From contig NZ_CALRYJ010000007.1 in the NCBI RefSeq assembly GCF_943372375.1, positions 85,128 to 149,127 on the forward strand: a DNA stretch of 64,000 nucleotides, in the 5' to 3' direction. The notes under the pieces are model-generated. The model saw only the letters and a program-made list of their open reading frames with translations. It ran no database searches and had not been told where the DNA came from. A program made the translations under genes and the position numbers. The stretch comes from Fluviicola taffensis DSM 16823. GTDB taxonomy: Bacteria; Bacteroidota; Bacteroidia; Flavobacteriales_D; Crocinitomicaceae. Shown one piece after another: positions 3,311-62,761 of this stretch (within the stretch, counting starts at the first letter, position 1; each line of letters begins with the position of its first letter).

Positions 3311-5674
3311 TCAGAACTCCAAACGATAGCTCAATATCGGGATCAACGATGTTTGGTACCAGTACTTTACTTCTCCGGTTTTGTCATTGAAATATTGCCC
3401 TCCGACATTTTTCCGATTCGTTGTATTCTGAATGTCAAGCGCAACGGTACTAGTAATCCGTTTGTAGTTGCGTTTCAGACTTAAGCGGATATCCAATCTG
3501 TAATAATCGGGCATTCTTTTTTGATAGGTTTGCGCTGTGACGTATTTTGTTTCGCCGGCTGCGATTGATGCGTTCAGATCTATCGGTGTATAACGGAAGC
3601 CTCCGACGTATATGGATTTAATATTGCAACCAATGGTTCGCTTCTTTTCCTTGTTTTTCAAATTCCATTCTTTCCCAATAGTTAAGGAAGTAGCGTAATT
3701 GGTATTGAACCGTGTATCATACCAAGCTCCATCAGCCCCTTTGTATTTGGATTCATAAAGTGAAGCAGACAGTAAATAATAGAGATTTTTGAACAGGAAC
3801 CGCTCATAAGTCAATTCCACACCATAATTTCTCCCAAGTCCCGAATTACTGAGTGATTCAGAGGGAAAACCATCCGTAGAATTTAAGATCGAATAGGTAC
3901 TTGTGGGATCTTTACTGATAGGGATACCAAATAAATGCTGGTAATACACTTCCGTTTTGATGTGTTCGTGTTCGTTCAGGACAAAATCATAGCCGAAAAC
4001 AGCATGATGTGCTTTGCTCAGCTTCAAATCCCGGTTCGGAAGCGTCCTTACTCCATTGTCCGTATTCTCCACAAAGTAAACACCTATTGGCTGCAGCTGG
4101 CTGTGCAAACCATAACCCAGAGTAAGATGGTGTTTCGGATGAATGTCATAACGCATGGATGCCCGTGGTTCAAGCGAATTACTGTTGTTCAGGAATAGCT
4201 GAAAGTAATGAACTCCGACATTCGCTGTCAGCTTTTCAGTGATGTGGGTATTCCATTGAAAAAACACTTGCATGGTTTCAGTTCCGCCTTTCTCATTGAT
4301 CTGTTCCAATAGAACGGTTGAGTCGCCCATGTCGCTTTGTTTTAAGCTATAGCCAAGATGGTTCAGGATAAACCCGGTTCGGATGTTGTTTTTTGCGTTT
4401 ATCTTTTGAGTGTATGTACTTGAAAGTGTCAGTTTGTTCTGCACAAATCGCTGCTCGTATTCGCGCGTAAGGGAAGAATAATCAAGCCCCAATCTGTCCT
4501 GTTTATAGCCATTTTCAGTTCCGGAAAATACCAAAGCCGTTTTTAAGTATGATTTGTTTTTGAAAAGTTTGGTATTGGTAACTCCGACCGCTCCGGTATT
4601 ACTGTAAAAATTGGTATTTAACCGGAGAAAATCGTCTTCCTGCCAGCGCACAGAATCCTTTTCTGCAGTGGTTGTCTGGTAGCTCAATCCACCAAAACCA
4701 AATAGGGTGAACTTCCCCAGCTTCCTGGTCGGGAGATAAAAATTGAATGACAGGTCCTGGAAATTGGTATTTGCATCTCCAATCGGAATCCCTATTTTTC
4801 CGAGTATGTTTAATGTCGAATAGCGGTAATTAATGAGGTATGACCCTTCATATCCTTTTTTGAACGGACCTTCGGCAGCCACATCCATTCCCAGAATTCC
4901 GAGTTGAACGGTGTATTCCCGCTTTTCATTATTCCCCTTTCTCAAACGCAGGTCGAATACACCGGAAAGTGCATTTCCATATTCTGCGGCAAAAGCCCCG
5001 GTCGAAAAGTCTGAATTACTCAAAAGCTGTGCACTTAAAATAGAGATTCCGCCGCCGGCAGTTCCCACATTCGAAAAATGGTTCGGGTTCGGAATTTCCA
5101 CACCTTCCATGCGCCACAAAAGACCGTTTGGTGAATTTCCACGAATCGAAATATGATTGTTACCGTCACCCGCAACTACCACGCCTGCAAAAGAGGTTGC
5201 CATGCGAGCCGGGTCGTTGACCGCAGCTGCGAACTTCTGTGTCTCTTCCACGGAAAACGTTCGGGTACTGACAGTGGAAAGTTCGTTCAAGGGTTTGTTT
5301 TTATCTGTTTTGGCAGTAATCACCACTTCATTTATTTTTTTTAGGTCTTCTTCCATGTTGATAGTGAGAACCAATTCTTTTCCGGCATTCACCGTGACAT
5401 TCTGCATCACAACCGGTTTGTAATCGAAAGCAGTGATTTCAATGGTTCTGCTTCCCACCGGAACACGCGACAGGTTGAACCGACCGTTCTCGTCTGTTAC
5501 GGCATGAATAACAGAATCTAATCCGGTTATTTGAATGACCGCTCCCGGAATGGAAGACTGGGAAATATTGTCGACAACTGTGCCTCGAACCGTTTGTGTT
5601 TGGGAGAAACAGGTATTGACAATAAGGCATAGCAATCCTGATACGAAGAATTTCGTTAATGTTTTTTGAAACAT
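3311..5674 (-). CDS. TonB-dependent outer-membrane receptor with N-terminal carboxypeptidase-regulatory-like domain
   Basis: Signal peptide, VRGTVVD..IPGAVI N-domain, plug NDPARMATSFAGV/IRGNSP, beta-barrel ending in YRLEF. Confidence 0.9.
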   Translation of the reverse strand: MFQKTLTKFFVSGLLCLIVNTCFSQTQTVRGTVVDNISQSSIPGAVIQITGLDSVIHAVTDENGRFNLSRVPVGSRTIEITAFDYKPVVMQNVTVNAGKELVLTINMEEDLKKINEVVITAKTDKNKPLNELSTVSTRTFSVEETQKFAAAVNDPARMATSFAGVVVAGDGNNHISIRGNSPNGLLWRMEGVEIPNPNHFSNVGTAGGGISILSAQLLSNSDFSTGAFAAEYGNALSGVFDLRLRKGNNEKREYTVQLGILGMDVAAEGPFKKGYEGSYLINYRYSTLNILGKIGIPIGDANTNFQDLSFNFYLPTRKLGKFTLFGFGGLSYQTTTAEKDSVRWQEDDFLRLNTNFYSNTGAVGVTNTKLFKNKSYLKTALVFSGTENGYKQDRLGLDYSSLTREYEQRFVQNKLTLSSTYTQKINAKNNIRTGFILNHLGYSLKQSDMGDSTVLLEQINEKGGTETMQVFFQWNTHITEKLTANVGVHYFQLFLNNSNSLEPRASMRYDIHPKHHLTLGYGLHSQLQPIGVYFVENTDNGVRTLPNRDLKLSKAHHAVFGYDFVLNEHEHIKTEVYYQHLFGIPISKDPTSTYSILNSTDGFPSESLSNSGLGRNYGVELTYERFLFKNLYYLLSASLYESKYKGADGAWYDTRFNTNYATSLTIGKEWNLKNKEKKRTIGCNIKSIYVGGFRYTPIDLNASIAAGETKYVTAQTYQKRMPDYYRLDIRLSLKRNYKRITSTVALDIQNTTNRKNVGGQYFNDKTGEVKYWYQTSLIPILSYRLEF

Positions 5675-5759
5675 GATTTTTATTTTTTGTAATTATGAAT
5701 CCTTTGGTCATCACCCGTATGCGCGCGATTAATCGCCTGCCCAAGAGGTTCCTGAATTT

Positions 5760-6485
5760 TTATATGTGGATTACCGACCCCGAACCACTGATGGTTGTAT
5801 TCACAGCAGGATTCCCCCTGTATTTGATATCACCGCTTCCGGAAATGGTCGCATTTAACTGATTTAAGACCCAAACGGAAACAGATCCTGACCCACTGAT
5901 CTTCACTTTTGAAATGTTCGCAGTCAAATTGTCCATTTCAATGTCTCCGGATCCGCTTATTTCCGCTTCTTCATTGGTTACCGCTCCGCCAGAAATGGAG
6001 ATGTTCCCTGAACCGCTGATGTCGGCATCCAAATTGCCTGCCGTGAGACCGGTAATCCGGATATCGCCAGAACCACTTATTTCCAATTCGAGACCGGTAG
6101 TTGTAAGCATTCCTGTAGATTCAAAATTCCCGCTTCCATCCAAATCAATTTTACGTAGATCAGGGGAATGGATAATGATTTTAATTCCATTGTGCTTGCG
6201 AATCCATTTACGGGAATCAATCTTCAATTCTCCTCCCTCGATTTCAGTTGTAATCACATCCAATACATTTTGCTGTGCCGAAATCTCTACGAAATAAACC
6301 GAGTCCTGCGTATAAGTTACGTCTGCATTGATAGACAATGAAATTTTATCAAAACCACTCAAATTACGTGTTTCGGTAACAGTTGCTCCTTTTCCCTTAA
6401 TTGAATTAAACAGGTGTTTTTTACAAGATGTAATTGAAACTGCCAGAACCAAAACCACCAGGATCATCCATTTTAAATTTTTCAT
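5760..6485 (-). CDS. Lipoprotein with GIN/DUF2807 beta-helix domain
   Basis: Lipobox SITSC; repeated ISGSGDI/ISGSGNI motifs. Confidence 0.85.
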   Translation of the reverse strand: MKNLKWMILVVLVLAVSITSCKKHLFNSIKGKGATVTETRNLSGFDKISLSINADVTYTQDSVYFVEISAQQNVLDVITTEIEGGELKIDSRKWIRKHNGIKIIIHSPDLRKIDLDGSGNFESTGMLTTTGLELEISGSGDIRITGLTAGNLDADISGSGNISISGGAVTNEEAEISGSGDIEMDNLTANISKVKISGSGSVSVWVLNQLNATISGSGDIKYRGNPAVNTTISGSGSVIHI

Positions 6486-6515
6486 AAAGACTTTTATTTT
6501 GTTAGTTATCTCTAT

Positions 6516-6581: not shown

Positions 6582-6724
6582 TCTCCCCTTGAGGGGAGAT
6601 CAAGAGGGGTGGAGGGATTGATGATAGGTAAGCCACCCTCCTTAGTCCTCCTTACAACTTTCGCACTGACGTTTGTCGTTGTTACGCCTTCATCCGCCGC
6701 GACGGACTCTTCTCAAGGGAGGAA
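6582..6724. repeat. Inverted pair of CTCCCCTTGAGGGGAG-type repeats, right unit interrupted by a ~58-bp insert
   Basis: Left unit TTCTCCCCTTGAGGGGAGATCAAGAGGGGT; right unit ACCCTCCTTAGTCCTCCT[insert]TCTCAAGGGAGGAA; insert contains TCCGCCGCGACGGA (6693-6706). Confidence 0.55.
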
Positions 6725-52040: not shown

Positions 52041-52113
<73 letters not shown>

Positions 52114-52118
52114 CAAAG

Positions 52119-52149
52119 AAAAGGTTGTCAAGTTTTGGCAACCTTTTTT
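52119..52149 (+). terminator. tRNA terminator (duplicated at 62723-62756)
   Basis: AAAAGGTTGTCA-AGTTT-TGGCAACCTTTTTT. Confidence 0.8.
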
Positions 52150-52171
52150 GTTTTTATAGAAATCACTATTC

Positions 52172-52417
52172 ATGTTTGTCACCTATGTTTTATACTCTGC
52201 CACTTACAACAAAATCTATGTTGGTTATACATCGGATCTGATTGACCGCTTTCATTCTCACAACCAATTTGCATCAAAAGGTTACACGGTTAAATTTCGC
52301 CCGTGGGAAGTAATCTATGTTGAATTTTTTGACTCAAAGGAAGAAGCCATGAAGCGTGAGAAAGAACTAAAATCTTCCAGAGGAAGGGATTTTATAAAAA
52401 ATAAGATTTTAGAATAG
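52172..52417 (+). CDS. Stand-alone GIY-YIG nuclease
   Basis: TYVLYS..KIYVGYTSDL..R..HN, AMKREKELKS; 81 aa; stop TAG is the start of a tRNA-derived repeat. Confidence 0.9.
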   Translation: MFVTYVLYSATYNKIYVGYTSDLIDRFHSHNQFASKGYTVKFRPWEVIYVEFFDSKEEAMKREKELKSSRGRDFIKNKILE

Positions 52418-52483
52418 CTCGTCGGGCTCATATCCGTCAGCTGACGGACGCACGTTTCCGCCGCGGCGGATGTCCCCGCTACA
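52415..52483 (+). pseudogene. Partial tRNA-fMet copy with two palindromic replacements
   Basis: TAGCTCGTCGGGCTCATA[TCCGTCAGCTGACGGA]CGCACGTT[TCCGCCGCGGCGGA]TGTCCCCGCTACA, followed by a hairpin and T-run at 52487-52517. Confidence 0.9.
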
Positions 52484-52635
52484 AGGAAAAAAGGTTAATC
52501 GCAAGATTAGCCTTTTTTTATGCGCAATTTTTTGAAACGACGAGAAGTTTATGCCGACATGATTTTCAGGGAACGCGGAAGGTGTCTAGTCCTAAAATAG
52601 CGATACACAAAAAGAATAGGACTAAGACATCCGAA

Positions 52636-54183
52636 TCACACTGCCGGAATCGATTGAAAACTATTGAAGTAATCGGTCGGGTCCCAACATTTTTTAACCT
52701 CTTTCAGACGCGGAAGATTTTCGCCAAAATACAGTTGTAGAGCACCTTCCAATCCACCGAAGGCATTCAGATCAGAATCGGGATAATTGTAATAGCAGCC
52801 ATCCACGTTATCTGTCGGATCGAGTTGAGGATTGGGGGTTCCGCCTGTCTCTATGTAAACAGTCGTATAGAATTCATTCATCCAATCCAGAAAAGCATGA
52901 TCATCTTTTTCTTCTGTCCAATAAGCCTGATATTGCAATTTGAGGATTGATGAGCGTTGAGGAATTGCTGTTTCTGTAGGAGAAACCGTATTTATTTCCC
53001 CTCCGTAAGTATCCACTTGCAGCAAACACTGCGTCATGTCTTGCGGTGTGAGCGATTGAGGAACAAGCGTAAGATATTTGTAAATTGCTTCGATCTGATA
53101 CATCGGGAATCCTTTCCGCATATAAGCGGATTTGTATTTTCCGCGTTGATTGGCTCCTGAACCGTTTAACGTTTGAACTGCCTCATAAAATGTATAACTC
53201 AAGGTATGAGCTACCGGCTGAGCAAATCCGCCCAGGTGAGTTGCAGAAGGCCTTGTGTTGAGTTGGTAGGTTACCAATCCGCTTAAGTCCTCAAGTATAT
53301 TGTTGATGTAACGTTGCCTGATTATTTCCGGGTTTTCGGATTTTAAAACTGCCGTTTGAATCGTCATGACAATTGCTCCTTGAGCCTGATGATGCAGTGC
53401 TAAAATTCCAAATTGCCTCCAGTTATCAGACCCTTCTGCAATTGCAGTAAAACGAGTCAAAACTGCATCTAAAATTTCTGGTGTGAGCTCACTCCAATCG
53501 ATACTTAGTTGCGTGATAAAAGCAGAAACGGGACTGTCTGGTAAGTCTTTGAAATAATATCGGGTAATAACTCCGAAATTTCCACCTCCACCGCCTTGAT
53601 GTCCCCAAAAAAGGTTTTGTTCATCGGGATCTTCAGATTCCTTTGAAACATAGATCACAGACGCGGGTTCTTCCGGATTTGGCTTAACCACCACTTCTAC
53701 TCCCGTCAACCAATCAACAGTTAATCCGTTCAGGCGCGATAGCAATCCGTAACCACCACCGCAAATATGTCCACCCAAACCGACAGAATAACATGATCCG
53801 GCAGGAAGTACTTTTCCGTAATCCCGGAAAAGGCTATTGAAAGCACTCCAATTTGTTCCGCCCGAATCCAGATAATATCCTTTTTCCGGATCATATCCGC
53901 AATCACTCATTGCGGAAACATCAATAATCGCCTTGGTTTTAGCACTGAAAACAAAGTTTTCATAACAATGCCCTCCGCTTTTGATTTTAACGTTTTTCCC
54001 ATACAGGGAAATCGCTTCTTCCAAAGCAACAGCTACTCCTTGAGGAGAATAGCATACATAAACGACTTCGCAGAAACCTGCCTGCCAACGTTGGTTAAAA
54101 CCTTGTAAAAAACTGGGAAATCTTGGGTCTGTTGCTGAGATAGGGTATTTGGAAAAACCTTTTGTATTGCTTTGTTGGTTCAT
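52636..54183 (-). CDS. FAD-linked oxidase (BBE/VAO family), hexose-oxidase-like, predicted bicovalent FAD
   Basis: KSGGHCYENF, PAGSCYSVGLGGHICGGG, GGGGGNFG, BBE domain YYNYPD..WDPTDYF. Confidence 0.88.
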   Translation of the reverse strand: MNQQSNTKGFSKYPISATDPRFPSFLQGFNQRWQAGFCEVVYVCYSPQGVAVALEEAISLYGKNVKIKSGGHCYENFVFSAKTKAIIDVSAMSDCGYDPEKGYYLDSGGTNWSAFNSLFRDYGKVLPAGSCYSVGLGGHICGGGYGLLSRLNGLTVDWLTGVEVVVKPNPEEPASVIYVSKESEDPDEQNLFWGHQGGGGGNFGVITRYYFKDLPDSPVSAFITQLSIDWSELTPEILDAVLTRFTAIAEGSDNWRQFGILALHHQAQGAIVMTIQTAVLKSENPEIIRQRYINNILEDLSGLVTYQLNTRPSATHLGGFAQPVAHTLSYTFYEAVQTLNGSGANQRGKYKSAYMRKGFPMYQIEAIYKYLTLVPQSLTPQDMTQCLLQVDTYGGEINTVSPTETAIPQRSSILKLQYQAYWTEEKDDHAFLDWMNEFYTTVYIETGGTPNPQLDPTDNVDGCYYNYPDSDLNAFGGLEGALQLYFGENLPRLKEVKKCWDPTDYFNSFQSIPAV

Positions 54184-54287
54184 GTGAATAGTTTAAGAGT
54201 CTAAATATATCATTTTGCGCCCAAATGCAGTCGTTTGAAAAAGCTTGCCCTTTGAAAAACCAATATATACGTTTTGCGGCGGGAACG

Positions 54288-54377
54288 CATAACCCGAAGG
54301 ATGCACGTTTCCGCCGCGGCGGATGTCCCCGCTACACCGAACGAAGGGCATCATTTCTGATGCCCTTCGTTATTTTT
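54288..54377 (+). pseudogene. Partial tRNA-fMet copy with TCCGCCGCGGCGGA replacement, plus 14-bp-stem hairpin
   Basis: CATAACCCGAAGGATGCACGTT[TCCGCCGCGGCGGA]TGTCCCCGCTACA; AACGAAGGGCATCA/TGATGCCCTTCGTT. Confidence 0.88.
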
Positions 54378-54412
54378 GCATCTTCCGAAACCCTTGCCAT
54401 TGCTGAGATTCT

Positions 54413-54600
54413 CTAAAAAAAGACATTCACTCTCAATGTTCGATACTCGCCTTTTTTGAAGTCATACACCAAACCCTCAGGAAATAGCATTTTTTGAATT
54501 CGCTTTTTACTTTCTTCGCTCAATTCGTCGAAAGATTCTAACAGGATAGCCTTCATCGGTTCAATGAATTTAGGATTAGCGAGTGTATATGCGACTAATC
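54413..54600 (-). pseudogene. Decayed C-terminal fragment resembling a large serine recombinase
   Basis: Own translation: ..KKRIQKMLFPEGLVYDFKKGEYRTLRVNVFF*; no catalytic domain; points toward the tRNA-derived repeat. Family call from recalled similarity. Confidence 0.55.
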
Positions 54601-54701
54601 TGTTACCAACACAATTGCTCCGACCAGCGGAAAGATCAGCGGCAGATGATTTACCACCAAATGAAAATGAGCATCATTCATAATAATACAATTTTATTTT
54701 A

Positions 54702-55421
54702 TTAAACATTCACTCCAAAGAGATAACCGACCAATGCGGATAAGCCCATTGCCAGCGTTCCCCAAATAGTAATTCTCAAAACGGCCTTTGGTACTTTTGA
54801 ACCACCTGTTCTTGCCGAAATTATTCCCAAGGTAGCCAGGAACAAGATGGTAAAACCATATAGCCAATATTCCATAACTTGAACTGGAGCAAACAAAACA
54901 ACCAATAACGGTAAAGCTCCTCCGATTGTAAATGCTCCACACGATGCCATAGCTGCCTGTATTGGTTTCGCTTGACTTACCTCATTTATTCCTAATTCAT
55001 CTCTTACATGAGCATCCAGCGCATTGTGCTCCGTCAACTCCATAGCAACCTGCATAGCAGTTTCCTTTTTCAACCCTCTCTTTTCATAAATCTGAGCTAA
55101 AATATTCAATTCCTGTTCAGGCATTTCCTTCAGTTCTTCAATTTCCCGTTCAATATCTGCCTTTTCGGTATCGGTTTGAGAACTTACAGAAACATATTCG
55201 CCGGCAGCCATAGATAAAGCTCCGGCTACCAAACCGGCTACAGTCGCCAAAACTATAGGTTCTCTTGAATCACTTGCTGTTGCAATTCCTATTGCAAGAC
55301 TGGATAATGAAATAATCCCATCATTTGCACCCAAAACAGTTGCTCTTAACCAATTACTGCGATGAATAAAGTGATTATCCAAATAGTTGTCAATTGTCAG
55401 TAATTCAGATTTCTTTTTCAT
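54702..55421 (-). CDS. VIT1/CCC1-family Fe/Mn transporter
   Basis: WLRATVLGANDGIIS, SMAAGEYVSVSSQ, IGGALPLL. Confidence 0.92.
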   Translation of the reverse strand: MKKKSELLTIDNYLDNHFIHRSNWLRATVLGANDGIISLSSLAIGIATASDSREPIVLATVAGLVAGALSMAAGEYVSVSSQTDTEKADIEREIEELKEMPEQELNILAQIYEKRGLKKETAMQVAMELTEHNALDAHVRDELGINEVSQAKPIQAAMASCGAFTIGGALPLLVVLFAPVQVMEYWLYGFTILFLATLGIISARTGGSKVPKAVLRITIWGTLAMGLSALVGYLFGVNV

Positions 55422-55660
55422 AGTTTCTACAAATTCATCAGTGATGGGGTTACTCGATATCTTCCTTAGCTATATTTAGCTGATTCCTAACATGAAGTTT
55501 TAAATTAGGAAAAGGGATTTAATAAACAAGGATATCCAGAATAAATCAAGTTTACAATGATATAAATCAGTTAATTAATTCAATTTCCGGCTTCAAAGCT
55601 ATTATTAGTTATTATGTTGAACTTTTTGAATCTACGAATTGTTAAAATTCAAATCAAAAG

Positions 55661-55720
55661 GAAAATGACCAGGTAAACTTCGATTTGGAAGAAGGTCCGA
55701 AAGGATTCAATGCAGTGAAT
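55661..55720 (+). pseudogene. Cold-shock protein (Csp) remnant
   Basis: Own translation ENDQVNFDLEEGPKGFNAVN matches a CSD C-terminal half; no intact start or N-terminal half. Confidence 0.6.
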
Positions 55721-55751
55721 GGTTTCCCTCTTTTTATTAAAAGTTATCTCG

Positions 55752-55858
55752 CTAAAGTAAACTTATATTGTTTATGTCCTCAGCCACTTCCTTGTTCGAT
55801 ACCGGTCGTTTATCCGCGACTAGTGAAACGGTAATCAATTTTTGGTTACCGTTTTTTT
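55752..55858 (-). other. att-arm-like junction 1 (hairpin plus conserved arm)
   Basis: Minus frame VADKRPVSNKEVAEDINNISLL*; 25/29 nt identical to 62678-62706; hairpin AAACGGTAATC..GGTTACCGTTT. Confidence 0.55.
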
Positions 55859-55873
55859 ATGTCTAAGATTTTT

Positions 55874-55953
55874 GAAGGTCGCACGTTTTCGCGGTGGCGT
55901 ATGTCCCCTCTACACCGAACGACAGGGTATCAGAAAGATGCCCTTCGTTATTT
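55874..55953 (+). pseudogene. Degenerate partial tRNA-fMet copy plus hairpin related to 54288-54377
   Basis: GAAGGTCGCACGTT[TTCGCGGTGGCGTA]TGTCCCCTCTACACCGAACGA..GATGCCCTTCGTTATTT; insert is 10/14 identical to TCCGCCGCGGCGGA. Confidence 0.8.
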
Positions 55954-55959
55954 CATGCA

Positions 55960-57024
55960 TTAGATATCCGAAGGATTTGTGTCGAAGACCTTCTTAAAAA
56001 CCGCCGAAAACTTACTCGCATTTTCGTAACCGAATAAGCCGGCAACCTCTTTGATAGCGTATTTCCTCTGTAAAAGGAGCTCTCTGGCAGCCATCATTTG
56101 TTTTTTACTAAAAAACTGATACACACTTGTACCATGCATTCCCTTAAAATCATTTTTGAGTTTGGTTGGAGAAACACCTACTTTCCGGGCTATTTTTTCA
56201 ATCCCGGGGAAATCACCGAACAAGTGATCATTTAAGAACTGTTCTGCACGCTGAATGTTCTTGCGGTCATTATCGTTGAGTTTGAAGTGATTCTCCGAAA
56301 TGATCTCTGTATTGAGCTTTTCGATGAACTCAAACAAGATCCGATAGGTCAACTGCTGAATGACTTCCTTATTTTGATCGACACCCTTCTGTGCCAACTC
56401 CATCATTTCATGCCAGATGGATTCATAGACCGGGTCTGTTTCGTCTAAAATCAAAAAGGTATTCGGTGATTCAAAGAAATCAGCTAGCTTGCTGTTCCGG
56501 GACACCTGGTTCGCCTCTTTTTGTTGCTCCAACCACCTGCTGGTAAAAAAAACGGTGATATTCTTTTCTTCCGAATTCTTAAAGTGGTACTCGGTTTGTG
56601 AACATCCGGCTTTAAACAGGGACCAGGTATTTCCTTTGGTCACCAATCCGTTGACCATGGATTTATTGACGAGTGTGGTTGTTTTGACGTGTAAATTGAT
56701 AAAGTGATATTCCAGAGGAAGTTTCTCGTCATACAAGTTGCGCATGAGGAGGTTTTTTTGGAAATGCAGGTTAGAAATCATGACCCAGAGTTCGGTTTCC
56801 GGGTTGCAATAGTACATCATCGATTTCAGGAAAATACTGGCAGATGACAGTGATTTTCGGATCGGATCATGCTTGGTGAAAGGCATTTGATCAAAACTCT
56901 CAATCATGGTTTCAGGCGACTGAAACAAATTATTCAACTGATAACTTCCATCCTTATAACCGACTTTATAACGCTGAAACTTTTTATACCAGGCGGCCAA
57001 GATGTTCGAAAACGTTCCTTCCAT
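55960..57024 (-). CDS. AraC-family transcriptional regulator
   Basis: C-terminal IEKIARKVGVSPTKLKNDFKGMHG..IKEVAGLFGYENASKFSAVFKK. Start 57024 preferred; 57105 possible. Confidence 0.9.
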   Translation of the reverse strand: MEGTFSNILAAWYKKFQRYKVGYKDGSYQLNNLFQSPETMIESFDQMPFTKHDPIRKSLSSASIFLKSMMYYCNPETELWVMISNLHFQKNLLMRNLYDEKLPLEYHFINLHVKTTTLVNKSMVNGLVTKGNTWSLFKAGCSQTEYHFKNSEEKNITVFFTSRWLEQQKEANQVSRNSKLADFFESPNTFLILDETDPVYESIWHEMMELAQKGVDQNKEVIQQLTYRILFEFIEKLNTEIISENHFKLNDNDRKNIQRAEQFLNDHLFGDFPGIEKIARKVGVSPTKLKNDFKGMHGTSVYQFFSKKQMMAARELLLQRKYAIKEVAGLFGYENASKFSAVFKKVFDTNPSDI

Positions 57025-57158
57025 GGGCGAAAGATACTTCAAGGATTTCGTTTTTCGAAGACTTCCGTTCTCCTTTTTGAAAAAACAAATGTCTTTTTGG
57101 AGCATGCTCCCTTTCCGATTCCACCTTAATTTCGAACCGGATTACAACTTATTCAATA

Positions 57159-60100
57159 ATGAAAAAACTACGCACTGGCCATTGGTCGCTAAACTCCGTA
57201 CAATGGAACCGGAAAGGATTCTTTTCACGGATCATCGCCGCTCTTATTTTTCTCTTAACCTTCCAGAATGCCTCTGCTCAACTGATTGCTCAGGTAAGTG
57301 ACTATGTGGGAAGTGGGTTGAATGAAAGCCAGGATGGAACTTTAACACAGGCGGGATTTAAAGACGTAACCAGTATTTGTAGCGATGGAAATAACAACTT
57401 GTATGTACTTGAGATAGTTAATGGTAAGATCCGAAAAATTACCCCATCGGGAATCGTCACAACTATTTATAGCGATCTGAATCAAAACTTTTTCGGTTCA
57501 GGTGGACTATCCGCCGCAATCCACGTGGATGCATTCTCCAATATCTATGTGTCCAGAGGGTACACAATTGCAAAAATAACCGGTCAGCACACATTCCAGA
57601 TCATTGCAGGTTCTCTTACAGAAGTAGGGTATACAAACAACAACATCGCCGGTCAAGGTCAAAATGCACGCTTTTCGTTCCTAAACTCCATGACATCGGA
57701 TATCTTTGGGAATCTGTATATTTCTGAAATAGGAGAAATAGCTTCAACTGAACGTTTTAGAATCAGACGGATCAATCCGTTTAATCAAAAAGTTGAAACA
57801 CTGTTTACGAGCCAAAAACCGATTTACGGTTTATGTTTCGATGCAAACGGAAATTTTGTTTTTGGAGAAGGGTTTTCGGTTGTGAAACTAAATCCACAAA
57901 CAATGGTAAAAACGGTAGTTGCCGGACATCCAACAGAAAGTAATCATATTAGCGGCCCCGGCACTGCTGCTCGTTTTCGCTCTATCGCTGATATTAAAGT
58001 GGTAAACAACGATATCTACGTCTTGGAGTGTGTTCCCAGGGTAATCAGGAGCTTTTCGAGTGCGTTTTCGAATGATTATAAATATGCTAAAAACTATTGT
58101 TATATCACGAAAATTTCCAATACGAATGTGGTTACCGATATTGCAGGAGGAGAAATAGGTGATGCAAATGGTGTAGGATTAAATGCCCGTTTCTATGGTC
58201 CATGCGGAATGGTAAAGAACTCTTCCGGAGATTTATTTATCTTGGATGATATGAAGAACTTGATCCGCAAGATCACATTTGTACCTCCAGCTCCAGCTCC
58301 CACACCTACTTATGTAAATGCTACTCCTTCTATTTGTTTGGGAAGTACGGTAGACCAACCGGCAACCATCACAGGGGCTGAGATGAGTCTTCAAATAACG
58401 AATGAAACTGTTCCTGTTTCCAGTGGGATTAAGGCCGCTTGCCGCAACCAGAATTTTGCATTTGTAGCAACGTCAAATGATGAAATCAAAAAATACGATT
58501 TTAACGGGAATCTGGTCGAAACCCTGCCTGCCATGCTGACGAATATTACCGGTATAGCTGCAGATTCCGTTAACCAGATTTATGCCGTTGCACAGGATAA
58601 TTCACTTCCTTCCTTAACTGCTGTTTATCGCCTACAGCCTAGCGGTAACATCGATCTTTCATGGGGTCCCACGACGTCAGGAGTTCTGAACAATGTATCT
58701 GCCATTGCCATGGGTAGTGACGACGGATTGATTTATGTGGCCGATACCTCAACGAGCTATATTTCATCCATTAATCCGGTAACTGCTGCCATCACCAACT
58801 TACCTGCTCCCGGGAACCTGCAATTGAGTTATTTCAAACCGGTGAGCATGGCCTTTGACGTCTTCGGGGACATGTACCTGGCAGATATCGGCGGAAACCA
58901 AATCCTGAAACGCAGCAAAGCAGACAACAATTACTACCCGGTATTCCCGGGATTGGAGAACGATACGCTGAAGATCGACGGAATCAGCATTGCACACTCC
59001 GAATCCGGATACATGTACTTGTCTTCCTCTGCCCGAAATGTGGTGTATGAATTGGGTGCGAATGCAGCCTATGATACCACAGTTGTCGGAAGAAAATTTT
59101 CGAATACGACCGAATTCAGTACGGGTTTCTCTCTGGATGAACCGATCAACGTCATCGCTATGAGTTCGAATAATGCGGGTGTACTCCTAATTCCCAATAA
59201 AGCAAGCGGTGAGATGAGAAAACTCGCCTACTTTATGATGAAAATTGCTCCGAGATTGCCGAAAGGCTTATTCTTCGATCCTAACACCGGAACCATTCAC
59301 GGAACTCCACTACAGGTTGCGCCATACACCACTTACACCATTACTGCGTATGGACCAACAGATAGCACGATGACAAATCTTGCATTCTCTGTAGACCCTT
59401 CGAGCCTGGTTTCCAACAATATCGGGAATAAAACCTCTGCAATCATCAACACGGGTGATGGATTGGCAGTGAATTTCTACGACAATTCCGGTTGTGAGCC
59501 TTTGGCTACCATCACGGACATCACGGACGGAAATCCAACAGGAAGCACGCAAGTGAAGCAAACAGTAGCAACCAACCTTCCGTTCTTCACTACCAGCGCA
59601 GGAGATACCAAATTTGTACGTCGTACAACGGAAGTCAATTCTCAGAAAATGGATTCCGCGAACGTACGCATCGAGTTGTATTTCACACACGCGGATATTG
59701 TGCATTACAATGCCAACAACGGAACTCAAACCGATTTCTCGAACGACACCACTGCAGGCACCATGGCAATGAGTATCCTGCAATTGCATACGGCTTCAAG
59801 CGGAAATACCCAACCTATTACACATAATACAACCGCAACGTGGAACACTTCCAAACAAGTGTGGGCAGCGAATTTCCCGGTAACCAAGTTCAGTACCTTC
59901 ATGGCCACCACACCGGATGCTTTGACTACGTTTGAATGTGAAAGCACCGAATCCACGGAATTTGCTTTCGGCTGTACCTCTGCCGAATACAACGGAGTTA
60001 GCTACACCGTAGACGGAGAGTATACGCTGAATTACCAAAACCAATACGGTTGTGACAGTATTGTGCACTTAATCGTGTTCCTGGATAACAACTCCGAAAT

Positions 60101-60572
60101 TACCATGATCGGCTCAGACACCCTGAAAGCATTGAATACGGCCAGCGGAACAACTTACCAGTGGGTAAATTGTGATAACAACTATGCAATTATTCCAGGA
60201 GCAACTGACAGTCTTTTCTTCGCAGCGGATACCGGAAGCTATGCTTGTATCATTACAAACACCGTTTGTGCAGACACTTCGGTTTGTGCGTACATTCAGG
60301 AGATTGGTGGAACCACCGGAATTGATCCGAATGGAAACATCTTTAACTATAAGATTTCACCGAACCCAACCAACGGTTTGGTACAGATCAGTTCCAGTTT
60401 CAATCAGCTGAACATTGAAATTTACAATGCACTGGGTGTGAAAGTCTTTGAAAAACGAACAGATTCCGGAATTACTTCGTGTAACCTATCGGAATTCGAT
60501 GCGGGGATTTACCTGATTCGTATGAGCAACGAAAGAGGTCAGATCATCACCGACCGAATCATCAAACAATAA
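57159..60572 (+). CDS. T9SS type A substrate with NHL/SMP-30-like propeller repeats
   Basis: DGNNNLYV, GQNARF, GLNARFYGPCG NHL-type repeats; LPKGLFFDPNTGTIHGTP Ig-like domain; CTD ISPNPTNGLV..AGIYLIR. Confidence 0.85.
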   Translation: MKKLRTGHWSLNSVQWNRKGFFSRIIAALIFLLTFQNASAQLIAQVSDYVGSGLNESQDGTLTQAGFKDVTSICSDGNNNLYVLEIVNGKIRKITPSGIVTTIYSDLNQNFFGSGGLSAAIHVDAFSNIYVSRGYTIAKITGQHTFQIIAGSLTEVGYTNNNIAGQGQNARFSFLNSMTSDIFGNLYISEIGEIASTERFRIRRINPFNQKVETLFTSQKPIYGLCFDANGNFVFGEGFSVVKLNPQTMVKTVVAGHPTESNHISGPGTAARFRSIADIKVVNNDIYVLECVPRVIRSFSSAFSNDYKYAKNYCYITKISNTNVVTDIAGGEIGDANGVGLNARFYGPCGMVKNSSGDLFILDDMKNLIRKITFVPPAPAPTPTYVNATPSICLGSTVDQPATITGAEMSLQITNETVPVSSGIKAACRNQNFAFVATSNDEIKKYDFNGNLVETLPAMLTNITGIAADSVNQIYAVAQDNSLPSLTAVYRLQPSGNIDLSWGPTTSGVLNNVSAIAMGSDDGLIYVADTSTSYISSINPVTAAITNLPAPGNLQLSYFKPVSMAFDVFGDMYLADIGGNQILKRSKADNNYYPVFPGLENDTLKIDGISIAHSESGYMYLSSSARNVVYELGANAAYDTTVVGRKFSNTTEFSTGFSLDEPINVIAMSSNNAGVLLIPNKASGEMRKLAYFMMKIAPRLPKGLFFDPNTGTIHGTPLQVAPYTTYTITAYGPTDSTMTNLAFSVDPSSLVSNNIGNKTSAIINTGDGLAVNFYDNSGCEPLATITDITDGNPTGSTQVKQTVATNLPFFTTSAGDTKFVRRTTEVNSQKMDSANVRIELYFTHADIVHYNANNGTQTDFSNDTTAGTMAMSILQLHTASSGNTQPITHNTTATWNTSKQVWAANFPVTKFSTFMATTPDALTTFECESTESTEFAFGCTSAEYNGVSYTVDGEYTLNYQNQYGCDSIVHLIVFLDNNSEITMIGSDTLKALNTASGTTYQWVNCDNNYAIIPGATDSLFFAADTGSYACIITNTVCADTSVCAYIQEIGGTTGIDPNGNIFNYKISPNPTNGLVQISSSFNQLNIEIYNALGVKVFEKRTDSGITSCNLSEFDAGIYLIRMSNERGQIITDRIIKQ

Positions 60573-60582
60573 TTAACAAACA

Positions 60583-60610
60583 AAGAGGATGTGTCTAGAC
60601 GCATCCTCTT
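60583..60610. terminator. Intergenic hairpin
   Basis: AAGAGGATGTGTCTAGACGCATCCTCTT. Confidence 0.55.
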
Positions 60611-60643
60611 CCTGTTTCAATCACATAATCAGTTATTTAAAAA

Positions 60644-62620
60644 ATGAAACAATTCTTTACACTCCTCTTTTTGGTTATCAGCAGTGCAGGTATTGCACAA
60701 AGCTATTCCGGTGGTTCCGGTACGGTAGCTGACCCGTATTTGATTGCCAACAAAGCCGATTTAAAATACTTAAGCGAAAATGTGAGTGAAGTAGGTTACC
60801 ACTTCAAACAAACAGCAAATATCGTATTCACATCCGCTGATTTTGCTCCGGGTGGTGACTTTTACAATGGTGGATCCGGGTTTGATCCGATCGGAGGAAA
60901 CATCAACCAGTACTTTATCGGGACGTATGACGGTAACCATTTCTTTATTGATAGCTTGTATATCAACAGACCAAACGAGGACGGTATCGGATTTTTCGCA
61001 TCTGTTAATCATCCCAATGCTGAAGTACGTGCTGTGGATTTAAGAAACGTAACGATTACCGGACAGAGTTATATTGGGGTGATTTCAGGAATAGTAAGTT
61101 CTGGGGCTTCTATTTTAAATTGTTCGGTTACCGGAACCATTTCAGGACAAACAACCATTGGTGGGTTGATCGGAGAGGTTGACTTAGCCACCGTTAACAA
61201 CTGCTTCACCCGTGTAAACGTGAACGGAGGCGATCTCGTTGCCGGATTGATTGCTTATGCTTCTGAGGTAACCATCAGCAATTGTTCGACTTCCGGAAAT
61301 TTAACCGGTCAGGAACAAGTAGGAGGACTTGTTGCTACTATACATGACTCCTTCATTACCAATTGCTATTCCCTTGCAGCCGTTAGCGGAACTAATTATG
61401 TGGGTGGTTTGGTGGGTAATTTTGGTTTGGGTTCAATAGTCATTACCAATTGCTACGCCGCAGGAGCAGTAAGTGGTACTTCATTTGTGGGCGGTTTAAT
61501 TGGTACTTTAACCAGCGGTAATACGGTTAATAATTCTTTTTGGGATGTGGAAACAACCGGACAATTGGTCAGCAGCGGCGGAACTCCGAAATCCACCCTG
61601 GAAATGAGATCACAAAGCACGTTTACAACTGCTACCTGGGATTTCATCAATGAATCTGCCAACGGAACCGACGACATCTGGAAAATGGGGGAATGTAAAA
61701 ACAACGGTTACCCGGTTTTTAGCTGGCAGGCCAGTGAAGTATATCCGGATCTAACATTTGGCTCAATTAACGGGAATGTTTTGGATTCAACAACTATTTG
61801 TTACAATGAGTCTGCTAATATACATGCAATGTCCTGGTACAATGTCACTTGGCATGACAGTATTACTGCCGGTAATTTAGTATCATCCAGTAGTCCGTTC
61901 ACTACACCAAATCTAACAGATACAACAATTTACTACGCTCAGGCAGATAACGGAACATGTATCAATCCGTTTCGTTTAGCATTTACAGTTGTGGTTCGAC
62001 CTGAAAACATTACCAATCAAACGTTTGAGTTCTGTGGAAGCGGATCTGTTACTGTAGGAACCAATACCTACACCACTACCGGAGTTTATACGGATGTTTT
62101 TACAGATGCCCATTCATGCGATAGTACCATCATTACAACTCTGACCATTCATCCGGATGTGAATACCGGAGTAACAGTGGACAGTTTGACGATTTCTGCT
62201 CTGGGAACCGGAACTTACCAATGGATCAATTGTGCTACTAACGCTGCTATTTCAGGAGAAACAGCTCAAAGTTTTACAGCAACAGCCAACGGATCTTATG
62301 CTGTTATTGTTTCCAATGGCAACTGTAGCGATACTTCTGCCTGCGTGAACATTACAACGGTTGGTTTAACTGACCTTACTGCTAATTCCAACTTCCGGGC
62401 TTACCCGAATCCAACGAAGGGTTCTGTTACCATTGACCTTGGAGCTGCGTACGCTGATGCAACGGTTGTGATTAAAAATGCGATCGGTCAGGTTGTTTGC
62501 TCCCAATCAATTGGTTCATCCGGAAAAACAGATTGCTCGATTGCAGGCGAAGCCGGAATTTATTTCCTGGAAGTGAAAACCGACAGTCAGCAGACCGTTT
62601 TGAAACTGATAAAAGAATAG
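60644..62620 (+). CDS. T9SS type A substrate with GLUG-repeat beta-helix
   Basis: GSGTVADPYLI, repeated VGGLVG/IGGLIG, SFWDVETTGQ; CTD AYPNPTKGSV..AGIYFLEV. Confidence 0.88.
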   Translation: MKQFFTLLFLVISSAGIAQSYSGGSGTVADPYLIANKADLKYLSENVSEVGYHFKQTANIVFTSADFAPGGDFYNGGSGFDPIGGNINQYFIGTYDGNHFFIDSLYINRPNEDGIGFFASVNHPNAEVRAVDLRNVTITGQSYIGVISGIVSSGASILNCSVTGTISGQTTIGGLIGEVDLATVNNCFTRVNVNGGDLVAGLIAYASEVTISNCSTSGNLTGQEQVGGLVATIHDSFITNCYSLAAVSGTNYVGGLVGNFGLGSIVITNCYAAGAVSGTSFVGGLIGTLTSGNTVNNSFWDVETTGQLVSSGGTPKSTLEMRSQSTFTTATWDFINESANGTDDIWKMGECKNNGYPVFSWQASEVYPDLTFGSINGNVLDSTTICYNESANIHAMSWYNVTWHDSITAGNLVSSSSPFTTPNLTDTTIYYAQADNGTCINPFRLAFTVVVRPENITNQTFEFCGSGSVTVGTNTYTTTGVYTDVFTDAHSCDSTIITTLTIHPDVNTGVTVDSLTISALGTGTYQWINCATNAAISGETAQSFTATANGSYAVIVSNGNCSDTSACVNITTVGLTDLTANSNFRAYPNPTKGSVTIDLGAAYADATVVIKNAIGQVVCSQSIGSSGKTDCSIAGEAGIYFLEVKTDSQQTVLKLIKE

Positions 62621-62650
62621 GACTAGTGTGATTAAACATAGGGTCTCCTG

Positions 62651-62761
62651 TTAAAAGCAGGTAATAATGTCTGCATCTTCAGCGAGTTCATTGTTCGATA
62701 CCGGTAGCCTTCCCGCTACAAAGAAAAAGGTTGTCAAGTTTTGGCAACCTTTTTTTGTTTT
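62651..62761. repeat. Right junction: conserved arm plus tRNA 3' end and terminator repeat
   Basis: Minus frame VAGRLPVSNNELAEDADIITCF*; CCCGCTACAAAGAAAAAGGTTGTCAAGTTTTGGCAACCTTTTTTTGTTTT. Confidence 0.85.

Follow-up and report, generated by a model that had tools for sequence, protein, structure and literature searches.

A small GIY-YIG nuclease gene and a hairpin-bearing partial tRNA copy as a candidate minimal selfish element at tRNA genes of Bacteroidota

The free-standing GIY-YIG homing endonuclease SegB of T-even phages is encoded among tRNA genes, cuts inside tRNA genes at the T-psi-C motif, spreads its own gene by recombinational repair and drives a nuclease- and recombination-dependent tandem amplification of the tRNA-plus-nuclease segment (PMC2330249; PMC13096335). 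Here we describe a unit on a contig of Fluviicola taffensis (NZ_CALRYJ010000007.1; origin of the sequence, a lake-water metagenome), within a stretch of 64,000 nucleotides that is called the window throughout, where an initiator tRNA gene is followed by a terminator, an open reading frame (ORF) for an 81-amino acid GIY-YIG protein and a partial copy of the same tRNA gene into which palindromes are built. We give about an even chance to the reading that we are dealing with a minimal selfish element, autonomous and about 330-360 bp long, of the homing-endonuclease type, which targets tRNA genes and regenerates them, and the unit may rank among the smallest self-contained selfish elements known from bacteria. 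Linkage to tRNA genes, insertion polymorphism and tandem arrays are shared with SegB. In contrast, SegB has about 220 residues including a DNA-binding part whereas the present protein is an 81-residue catalytic domain from another GIY-YIG clade, SegB resides in phages and the present unit in chromosomes, and SegB loci lack a hairpin-substituted partial tRNA copy. A full-text literature search found no description of this bacterial module, the SegB work being the sole analogue.

Like tRNA-targeting islands, the present element carries the 3' part of a tRNA, regenerates the gene and displaces the host 3' part to the far junction, and serial relics pile up downstream of the window tRNA. Unlike such islands, it has no integrase, measures about 350 bp, and its tRNA copy reaches back to the D-loop and has a hairpin in place of nucleotides 38-47. 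REP/RAYT systems, IS200/IS605 elements with their TnpB guide RNA and miniature inverted-repeat transposable elements (MITEs) are hairpin-dependent elements and non-autonomous derivatives. As in these, a protein gene is tied to a 3' hairpin that overlaps the end of the ORF, and derivatives lacking the protein multiply; the enzyme class differs, however, there are no terminal inverted repeats, and, unlike REP-type repeats, the hairpin is not dispersed over the genome but confined to tRNA relics (exact copies in the 64-kb window; none in a tRNA context in 488 kb of control loci). Small size and a single GIY-YIG domain are shared with UPF0213 and Slx1 proteins (PDB entries 1ZG2 and 1YWL; 4XLG), for which tRNA linkage or mobility did not turn up with the tools used; Slx1, unlike the 81-amino acid protein, has a RING domain and works with a partner, Slx4. 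Overall, the unit seems to work like a free-standing homing endonuclease gene crossed with the design of a tRNA-regenerating island.

ARAGORN and Rfam agree on tRNA-Met(CAT) as the sole tRNA of the window, and direct reading reveals the marks of an initiator, namely a GGG/CCC anticodon stem with three G-C pairs and a 1-72 mismatch. The features of the locus are as follows.

52041-52114, + strand: functional initiator tRNA-Met(CAT) gene (ARAGORN; Rfam tRNA model, 61.9 bits)
52117-52149, + strand: terminator hairpin 1 with T-run, between tRNA and ORF (terminator scan)
52172-52417, + strand: ORF for a predicted stand-alone GIY-YIG nuclease of 81 amino acids, UPF0213/Slx1-like clade (PF01541, E = 1.1e-18)
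52415-52432, + strand: left part of relic A, tRNA nucleotides 20-37 (3' D-loop/D-stem to anticodon; 18/18 identical to 52060-52077)
52433-52448, + strand: hairpin 1, TCCGTCAGCTGACGGA, a 16-nt perfect palindrome in place of tRNA nucleotides 38-47
52449-52456, + strand: relic A, copy of tRNA nucleotides 48-55, CGCACGTT
52457-52470, + strand: hairpin 2, TCCGCCGCGGCGGA, a 14-nt perfect palindrome in place of T-loop nucleotides 56-62
52471-52483, + strand: relic A, copy of tRNA nucleotides 63-75, the 3' strands of T-stem and acceptor (13/13 identical to 52103-52115)
52487-52518, + strand: terminator-like hairpin 2 after relic A (inverted repeat; RNA fold)

The stop codon of the ORF (TAG, 52415-52417) is at the same time the D-loop TAG that opens a tRNA-derived stretch of 69 nt (52415-52483), termed relic A, which is collinear with tRNA nucleotides 20-75 and holds the two perfect palindromes. 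A preliminary description of this DNA had reported the succession of tRNA, terminator, 81-amino acid GIY-YIG ORF and a 69-nt tRNA-derived stretch starting at the stop codon, and our analysis found it exactly so. Within the window, the collinear matches between tRNA and relic A have BLAST E-values of 9e-5 and 1e-3, and no exact copy of either palindrome occurs outside tRNA relics in the 64 kb; together with the recurrence of the arrangement in 68 of 80 loci (see below), this excludes a chance origin of relic A. In a filled/empty pair of Aquirufa loci described below, the equivalent of terminator 1 belongs to the element, and by analogy with this pair the hairpin at 52487-52518 is probably the original terminator of the host tRNA. 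The window tRNA-fMet can be regarded as target or anchor of the element, and its 3' part may be element-derived in the filled state. When 52415-52483 is folded as RNA, the left arm of hairpin 1 and the right arm of hairpin 2 pair with each other in the minimum-energy structure instead of giving two hairpins, since TCCG/CGGA arms are common to both; folded as DNA, hairpin 1 forms alone. A near copy of the second palindrome, TCCGCCGCGACGGA, with one mismatch, was noticed at 6691-6706 in a hairpin-rich intergenic region devoid of tRNA-like context and may be due to chance.

The 81-amino acid protein matches PF01541 in Pfam with 67.8 bits (cut-off 22.6; E = 1.1e-18; profile positions 2-73 of 78), and in 72 aligned homologues the catalytic residues Y5, Y16, G18, R26, H30/N31 and E63 are each conserved to at least 95%. 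The nearest PDB sequences are BH0048 (1ZG2; E = 2e-4), EF2693 (1YWL; E = 2e-3) and SLX1 (4XLG; E = 0.28-0.35), matches that are weak but rank first and by which the protein is placed in the UPF0213/Slx1-like clade. No NCBIfam model matches it, PADLOC assigned it to none of its defence or toxin-antitoxin models, a PHROGs search gave only weak, generic endonuclease matches, and no close homologue was found in the phage and plasmid collections searched. The promoter consensus of Bacteroidota is TAnnTTTG, and on direct reading no obvious promoter of this type was found between tRNA and ORF. At an Aquirufa locus, metatranscriptome contigs of low depth span the tRNA 3' end, the terminator and the ORF, or the ORF and the relic, which weakly favours expression of the ORF by read-through.

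Homologues were scanned in one genome per species, yielding 79 loci (48-83% identity; L numbers denote individual loci) and, with the window added, 80. The hosts are nearly all Bacteroidota (Flavobacteriales, Cytophagales, Chitinophagales, Sphingobacteriales, Bacteroidales and Balneolales), and two contigs are labelled Cloacimonadota. Bacteroidota-type loci also carry the labels Planktophila, Chryseobacterium gleum, Rhizobium or Caulobacter (L010, L015, L027, L032 and L071) and probably stem from mis-binned or mislabelled metagenome-assembled genomes. A tRNA(CAU) gene lies upstream on the same strand in 61 of the 80 loci, at a distance of 27-104 nt in about 50 of these, and many of the loci lacking it are interrupted by a contig end. 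In 68 of the 80, the ORF is followed by a partial tRNA copy with nucleotides 38-47 replaced by a hairpin. Homologues are therefore enriched beside tRNA duplications, a point on which the preliminary description had been prepared to let its proposal fall. The ORF stops at the D-loop TAG in most loci; elsewhere, reading continues as far as a TGA within the loop of the hairpin. Beside initiator tRNAs the copy has GGGCTCATA, and beside a second, elongator-type tRNA(CAU) it has GGATTCATA; in 32 of 55 loci the right part (27 nt; T-arm and acceptor strand) agrees with the local tRNA at every position (100% identity). The T-arm/acceptor sequences differ between lineages, yet the copy follows the local tRNA. 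Targets are mostly initiator tRNA-Met genes, some are elongator-type tRNA(CAU) genes and one lineage uses tRNA-Asn: in the two loci labelled Cloacimonadota (L068, positions 5700-6455, and L073) the module is built on tRNA-Asn(GUU), and TCCGGC..GCCGGA hairpins replace again exactly nucleotides 38-47 and also part of the T-arm and of the acceptor. A unit of this kind would explain a recurrent puzzle in the annotation of Bacteroidota genomes, where fragments of tRNA and tandem repeats are met together with small GIY-YIG genes beside tRNA-Met genes.

Hairpin 1 has the consensus TCCGYC-N2-4-GRCGGA and occupies tRNA nucleotides 38-47 in 68 of the 80 loci. Its arms are TCCGCC/GGCGGA in 37 cases, TCCGTC/GACGGA in 23, TCCGCT/AGCGGA in 3, TCCGGC/GCCGGA in 2 and TCAGTC/GACTGA in others; the arms thus covary, and the loop drifts from an apparent AGCT ancestor. 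The GIY loci, 811 kb in total, contain 130 such motifs, shuffled sequence contains 4, and 488 kb of control loci contain 3, none of them in a tRNA context. Hairpin 1 is a conserved hallmark of the element family and takes the place of exactly these nucleotides in every lineage. Hairpin 2 is a member of the same hairpin family, located in the T-loop, and represents a lineage-specific secondary substitution that is lacking in the closest relative (L002). T-loop hairpins are present in L001, L021, L044, L054, L058, L061 and L068, independently in several lineages, and further secondary hairpins were encountered in the D-arm (L067) and inside a terminator (L034). Positions 1-200 of L067 contain full-length pseudo-tRNAs in which the D-arm (nucleotides 12-23) has also been swapped for a hairpin of the same family, so that every one of the three tRNA arms can be substituted. 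Both palindromes had initially been taken for edits of the copied tRNA, a view that suits the second, lineage-specific one in the T-loop and has to be given up for the first, conserved one. GIY-YIG restriction enzymes, such as Eco29kI, exist, and a restriction site at the palindrome centres (CCGCGG, CAGCTG) was considered; it was rejected, as the centre varies freely across lineages while the arms are conserved.

Stems that are kept by compensatory changes while their loops drift are also what would be expected if the hairpin-bearing, tRNA-like relic were a functional RNA, that is, a 3' stabiliser, a processing signal, or a decoy or antitoxin binding the nuclease, and if the unit persisted by addiction or regulation instead of homing. 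Repeat RNAs of type III toxin-antitoxin systems and guide RNAs overlapping TnpB genes at their 3' ends are analogues of such an arrangement. In line with it, the relic begins exactly at the 3' end of the ORF or overlaps it, units of relic plus terminator are tandemly repeated and often lie upstream of the ORF, the relic region folds better than its own shuffles (z = -4.5), and in L022 full-length hairpin tRNAs with promoters lie directly upstream of the ORF. The palindromes are symmetric, however, and for this reason the covariation fits DNA hairpins equally well; moreover, the metatranscriptome contigs connecting the ORF with the tRNA 3' end and with the relic, which would agree with an RNA role, are of low depth and could include DNA. 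A search of Rfam gave no family for the relic (the tRNA itself was the only match), the defence and toxin-antitoxin models were not matched, and a role as RNA would on its own explain neither the insertion polymorphism nor the tRNA 3' part that the element brings along. We consider this explanation quite improbable.

The insertion polymorphism was recognized in Aquirufa, where a filled locus (L011) matches an empty one (L160) almost perfectly: besides a 356-nt insert in L011, the pair shows 3 differences over 4074 nt upstream and none over 2856 nt downstream. A three-way alignment showed no difference between L011 and the empty L160 from relic position C48 onwards, the terminator and the sequence after it included, whereas the terminator and spacer that follow the functional tRNA of L011 have diverged. 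At two positions the left part of the L011 relic, TAGCTCGCTGGGATCATA, differs from the host tRNA. From the diverged terminator and spacer and from this left part it follows that the tRNA 3' part, terminator, spacer, ORF, pseudo-nucleotides 20-37 and hairpin are element-borne; the exact left junction of the insert is masked by identical sequence. Insertion leaves the host tRNA intact, and the host 3' part, from nucleotide 48 to the terminator, moves downstream and becomes the right half of the relic. The insert codes for the 81-amino acid ORF alone and for no tyrosine or serine recombinase, which bears out the earlier idea of a self-contained minimal unit of a nuclease gene with a tRNA copy. 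The same alignment contradicts the accompanying assumption that the target is duplicated on insertion: a target-site duplication by a staggered cut was rejected because terminator and spacer differ between the tRNA side and the relic side of L011, the latter being equal to the empty allele, so the element delivers tRNA 3' part and terminator and displaces the 3' part of the host.

Terminator and spacer of the L011 element are 95% identical to those of L008, while the flanks of the two loci are only 86% identical, and the terminator after the L008 relic, i.e., the host terminator, is unrelated to that of L011. In metagenome X46 sequencing depth was 12 over the element compared to 24-25 over both flanks, and in metagenome X47 it was 0 compared to 17-18. 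An assembly collapse as the origin of the empty allele is unlikely, as isolates of other Aquirufa species are empty as well and depths over the element are zero or half. All seven Aquirufa loci retrieved via Era (L160-L166; four named species or lineages) were empty, and among 80 loci of an Era-seeded metagenome sample, 10 sites adjoined a tRNA-fMet, with neither nuclease nor hairpin present at any of them; at tRNA-fMet/era sites the unit is therefore sporadic and not a core feature. The empty sites of Aquirufa beregesia and A. ecclesiirivi (L163-L165) harbour unrelated tandem repeats (GGTGGCTTCGAGAACCTCAGCCACC...) between tRNA-fMet and a LytTR gene, and the gap between these two genes ranges from 345 to 2033 nt across the species.

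Element and host phylogenies are decoupled. Aquirufa pairs whose Era proteins are 97-98% identical have GIY proteins of only 72-76% identity, whereas Fluviicola and Aquirufa share 51% identity in Era and 74% in GIY. Between the closest Aquirufa hosts (L003/L011; flanks 91%) the ORFs have no detectable blastn match, and in the most distant pair (L008/L011; flanks 86%) they are 91.7% identical. In the GIY tree, elements at initiator and at elongator-type tRNA(CAU) genes are interleaved in the Flavobacterium clade, indicating target changes. Selfish spread, as first claimed, gains from this decoupling and from the presence/absence polymorphism between near-identical genomes; the claim loses the duplication, which is not made from the target.

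Tandem amplification, which had been anticipated, was found in the form of arrays in at least 22 loci. The copies are mostly 94-100% identical (one pair, 62%), and many are frameshifted or truncated. Arrays without an ORF, consisting of hairpin relic and terminator with a period of about 90-175 nt, occur in L057 (positions 5440-6500; 174-nt period) and also in L017, L039, L054, L063, L065, L066 and L067, on both sides of an intact ORF. On sequence grounds these units look like non-autonomous derivatives that arose by internal deletion. At L022 (positions 1380-2760) the arrangement is reversed with respect to all other loci: two tandem units, each composed of a promoter, a full-length tRNA-fMet with the hairpin in place of nucleotides 38-47 and an ORF, are followed by two intact tRNA-fMet genes. 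Such hairpin tRNAs are the product expected from recombination on the other side of the hairpin, an outcome that would be lethal where the tRNA is single-copy.

We propose that the element consists, in this order, of a replacement tRNA 3' part, a terminator with a short spacer, the 81-amino acid GIY-YIG gene, pseudo-nucleotides 20-37 and the hairpin. The nuclease would be expressed at a low level by read-through from the tRNA promoter and would nick or cut tRNA-gene DNA in or near nucleotides 38-47, the segment that the hairpin replaces. Of the broken ends, at about nucleotides 37 and 48, the left one would match the functional tRNA of the donor and the right one the donor relic, so that recombinational repair would copy the whole unit into the empty tRNA gene (homing). 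Repeated action of the nuclease on the resident tRNA would yield the tandem arrays, and internal deletions would give rise to mini-units of hairpin relic without ORF. More speculatively, the hairpin may mark and disable the displaced copy and force crossovers to its 3' side, such that a working tRNA is always regenerated. Activity of the nuclease, its cut site and the role of the hairpin are what we infer from sequence.

Several observations weigh against a homing element. Nuclease activity of the protein is predicted, its catalytic domain fills the 81 residues with no DNA-binding domain recognised by Pfam, and the nearest solved relatives, UPF0213 and Slx1 proteins, are not homing enzymes. 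The functional tRNA retains the presumed target beside intact ORFs, while it is the displaced copy that is disrupted at nucleotides 38-47, and L055 even has three intact tRNA-fMet copies; the element therefore lacks a simple self-immunity, and target immunity of a simple kind, such as the protection of the copy from re-cleavage by its palindromes that the preliminary description had held possible, leaves part of the design unexplained. As a rule, the relic resembles the local tRNA type in its left part, which simple homing without later gene conversion does not predict. The scan usually gave one locus per genome, and the GIY tree largely tracks taxonomy at order and family level. Ordinary homologous recombination could equally decouple element and host trees. 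The two L011 copies form an identical direct repeat of 43 nt (nucleotides 48-74 plus 16 nt), and via this repeat the filled/empty pair fits gain or precise loss alike.

The last points would also be accounted for by a passive accessory cassette that moves by ordinary homologous recombination at a highly conserved tRNA, after transformation or conjugation between relatives, and forms its arrays by unequal crossing-over, whereas the GIY-YIG protein serves the host in another way, e.g., in structure-specific repair or defence, and takes no part in spread. Direct repeats of at least 43 nt suffice for precise loss and for unequal crossing-over, a single locus per genome and a GIY tree that broadly follows taxonomy at order level would be consistent with such a cassette, the Slx1/UPF0213 clade comprises structure-specific or uncharacterised nucleases, and the catalytic residues have been under long-term conservation. 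However, a passive cassette explains neither why a conserved, covarying hairpin sits at exactly nucleotides 38-47 nor why, in three tRNA types, the junction is fixed at the D-loop TAG. Crossing between hosts would require recombination within about 27 nt of right-side homology, which is inefficient without a break; frequent ORF decay and a very patchy distribution argue against a benefit for the host, and no known defence family was matched. We therefore regard a passive cassette as unlikely.

Returning to the selfish element, the unit stands a substantial chance of being a distinct class of minimal element. Tentatively, and somewhat short of an even chance, we suggest an unrecognised class in Bacteroidota, with relatives elsewhere, in which a Slx1/UPF0213-type catalytic domain, devoid of a DNA-binding domain, would read tRNA-gene structure and break it near nucleotides 38-47, homing would make use of an element-borne 3' half, the hairpin would mark the displaced half, protein-less mini-elements would be formed and the hairpin would have spread to other arms of pseudo-tRNAs. 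If the mechanism holds, this would be close to the smallest self-propagating DNA element with its own enzyme (about 350 bp; 81 residues), and an essential single-copy initiator tRNA would be targeted without death of the host by virtue of the replacement half that is carried along. The link known from phage between tRNA-associated GIY-YIG nucleases and segmental amplification would then extend to bacterial chromosomes. A testable function is hereby offered for the widespread UPF0213/Slx1-like GIY-YIG proteins, of which structures have been solved; it would, if true, be the first biological role for the large orphan UPF0213 family. A nuclease that recognises the structure of a tRNA gene and not a long sequence would also be of interest to enzymology.

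Beyond relic A, the window contains further degenerate copies of the tRNA-fMet 3' part, all of them downstream, on the same strand and each with its own terminator:

54275-54336, + strand: relic B, tRNA-fMet pseudogene, with terminator at 54340-54371
55778-55823, + strand (region 55778-55953): relic E, degenerate tRNA-fMet 3' relic followed by a terminator
55874-55914, + strand (region to 55953): relic C, degenerate tRNA-fMet 3' relic with decayed hairpin 2, followed by a terminator
62677-62756, + strand: relic D, degenerate T-loop with CCCGCTACA; a 44-nt copy of terminator 1 (97.7% identical) comes next

About 10.6 kb after the tRNA (52115-62756) are thus dotted with five tRNA-fMet 3' relics, relic D being at the far end, and the genes in between are unrelated (an FAD/BBE oxidase, a VIT-family protein, an AraC regulator and two secreted proteins). 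The serial relics with unrelated genes between them characterise the tRNA-fMet locus as a repeatedly remodelled hot spot. At least five such relics, with cargo genes between them, might be taken for scars of integrase islands, in which case the relics would be duplications of the tRNA 3' end of attL/attR type, due to elements with tyrosine or serine recombinases, and the GIY-YIG gene would be incidental cargo; regeneration of the tRNA from an element-borne 3' part is indeed the classic island design. We judge this very improbable: the 356-nt insert of Aquirufa encodes the 81-amino acid nuclease and nothing else, no recombinase family is common to the 79 loci, whose only recurrent neighbours are the housekeeping genes era and der, and the duplication extends to the D-loop and bears a hairpin, unlike att sites of integrases.

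In the Fluviicola contigs L001 and L031 the nuclease unit follows a D-type relic and not the tRNA, so the order of blocks varies among relatives. A LytTR regulator upstream of the unit in the window was rejected as a conserved neighbour, as no homologue is found in the other loci, and a 47-amino acid ORF at 54413-54556 was rejected as a recombinase fragment for want of Pfam support. Relic B has an acceptor-like 5' end, has lost the D-arm and the 5' strand of the anticodon stem and retains nucleotides 34-55; hairpin 2 is present in its T-loop, within a terminal stretch of 34 nt that does not differ from relic A. It resembles a whole tRNA-fMet pseudogene, and the region upstream of it is similar to that upstream of tRNA-fMet. 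Its 5' stretch GCGGCGGGAACG can form 12 bp with CGTTTCCGCCGC, a pairing that competes with the palindrome hairpin.

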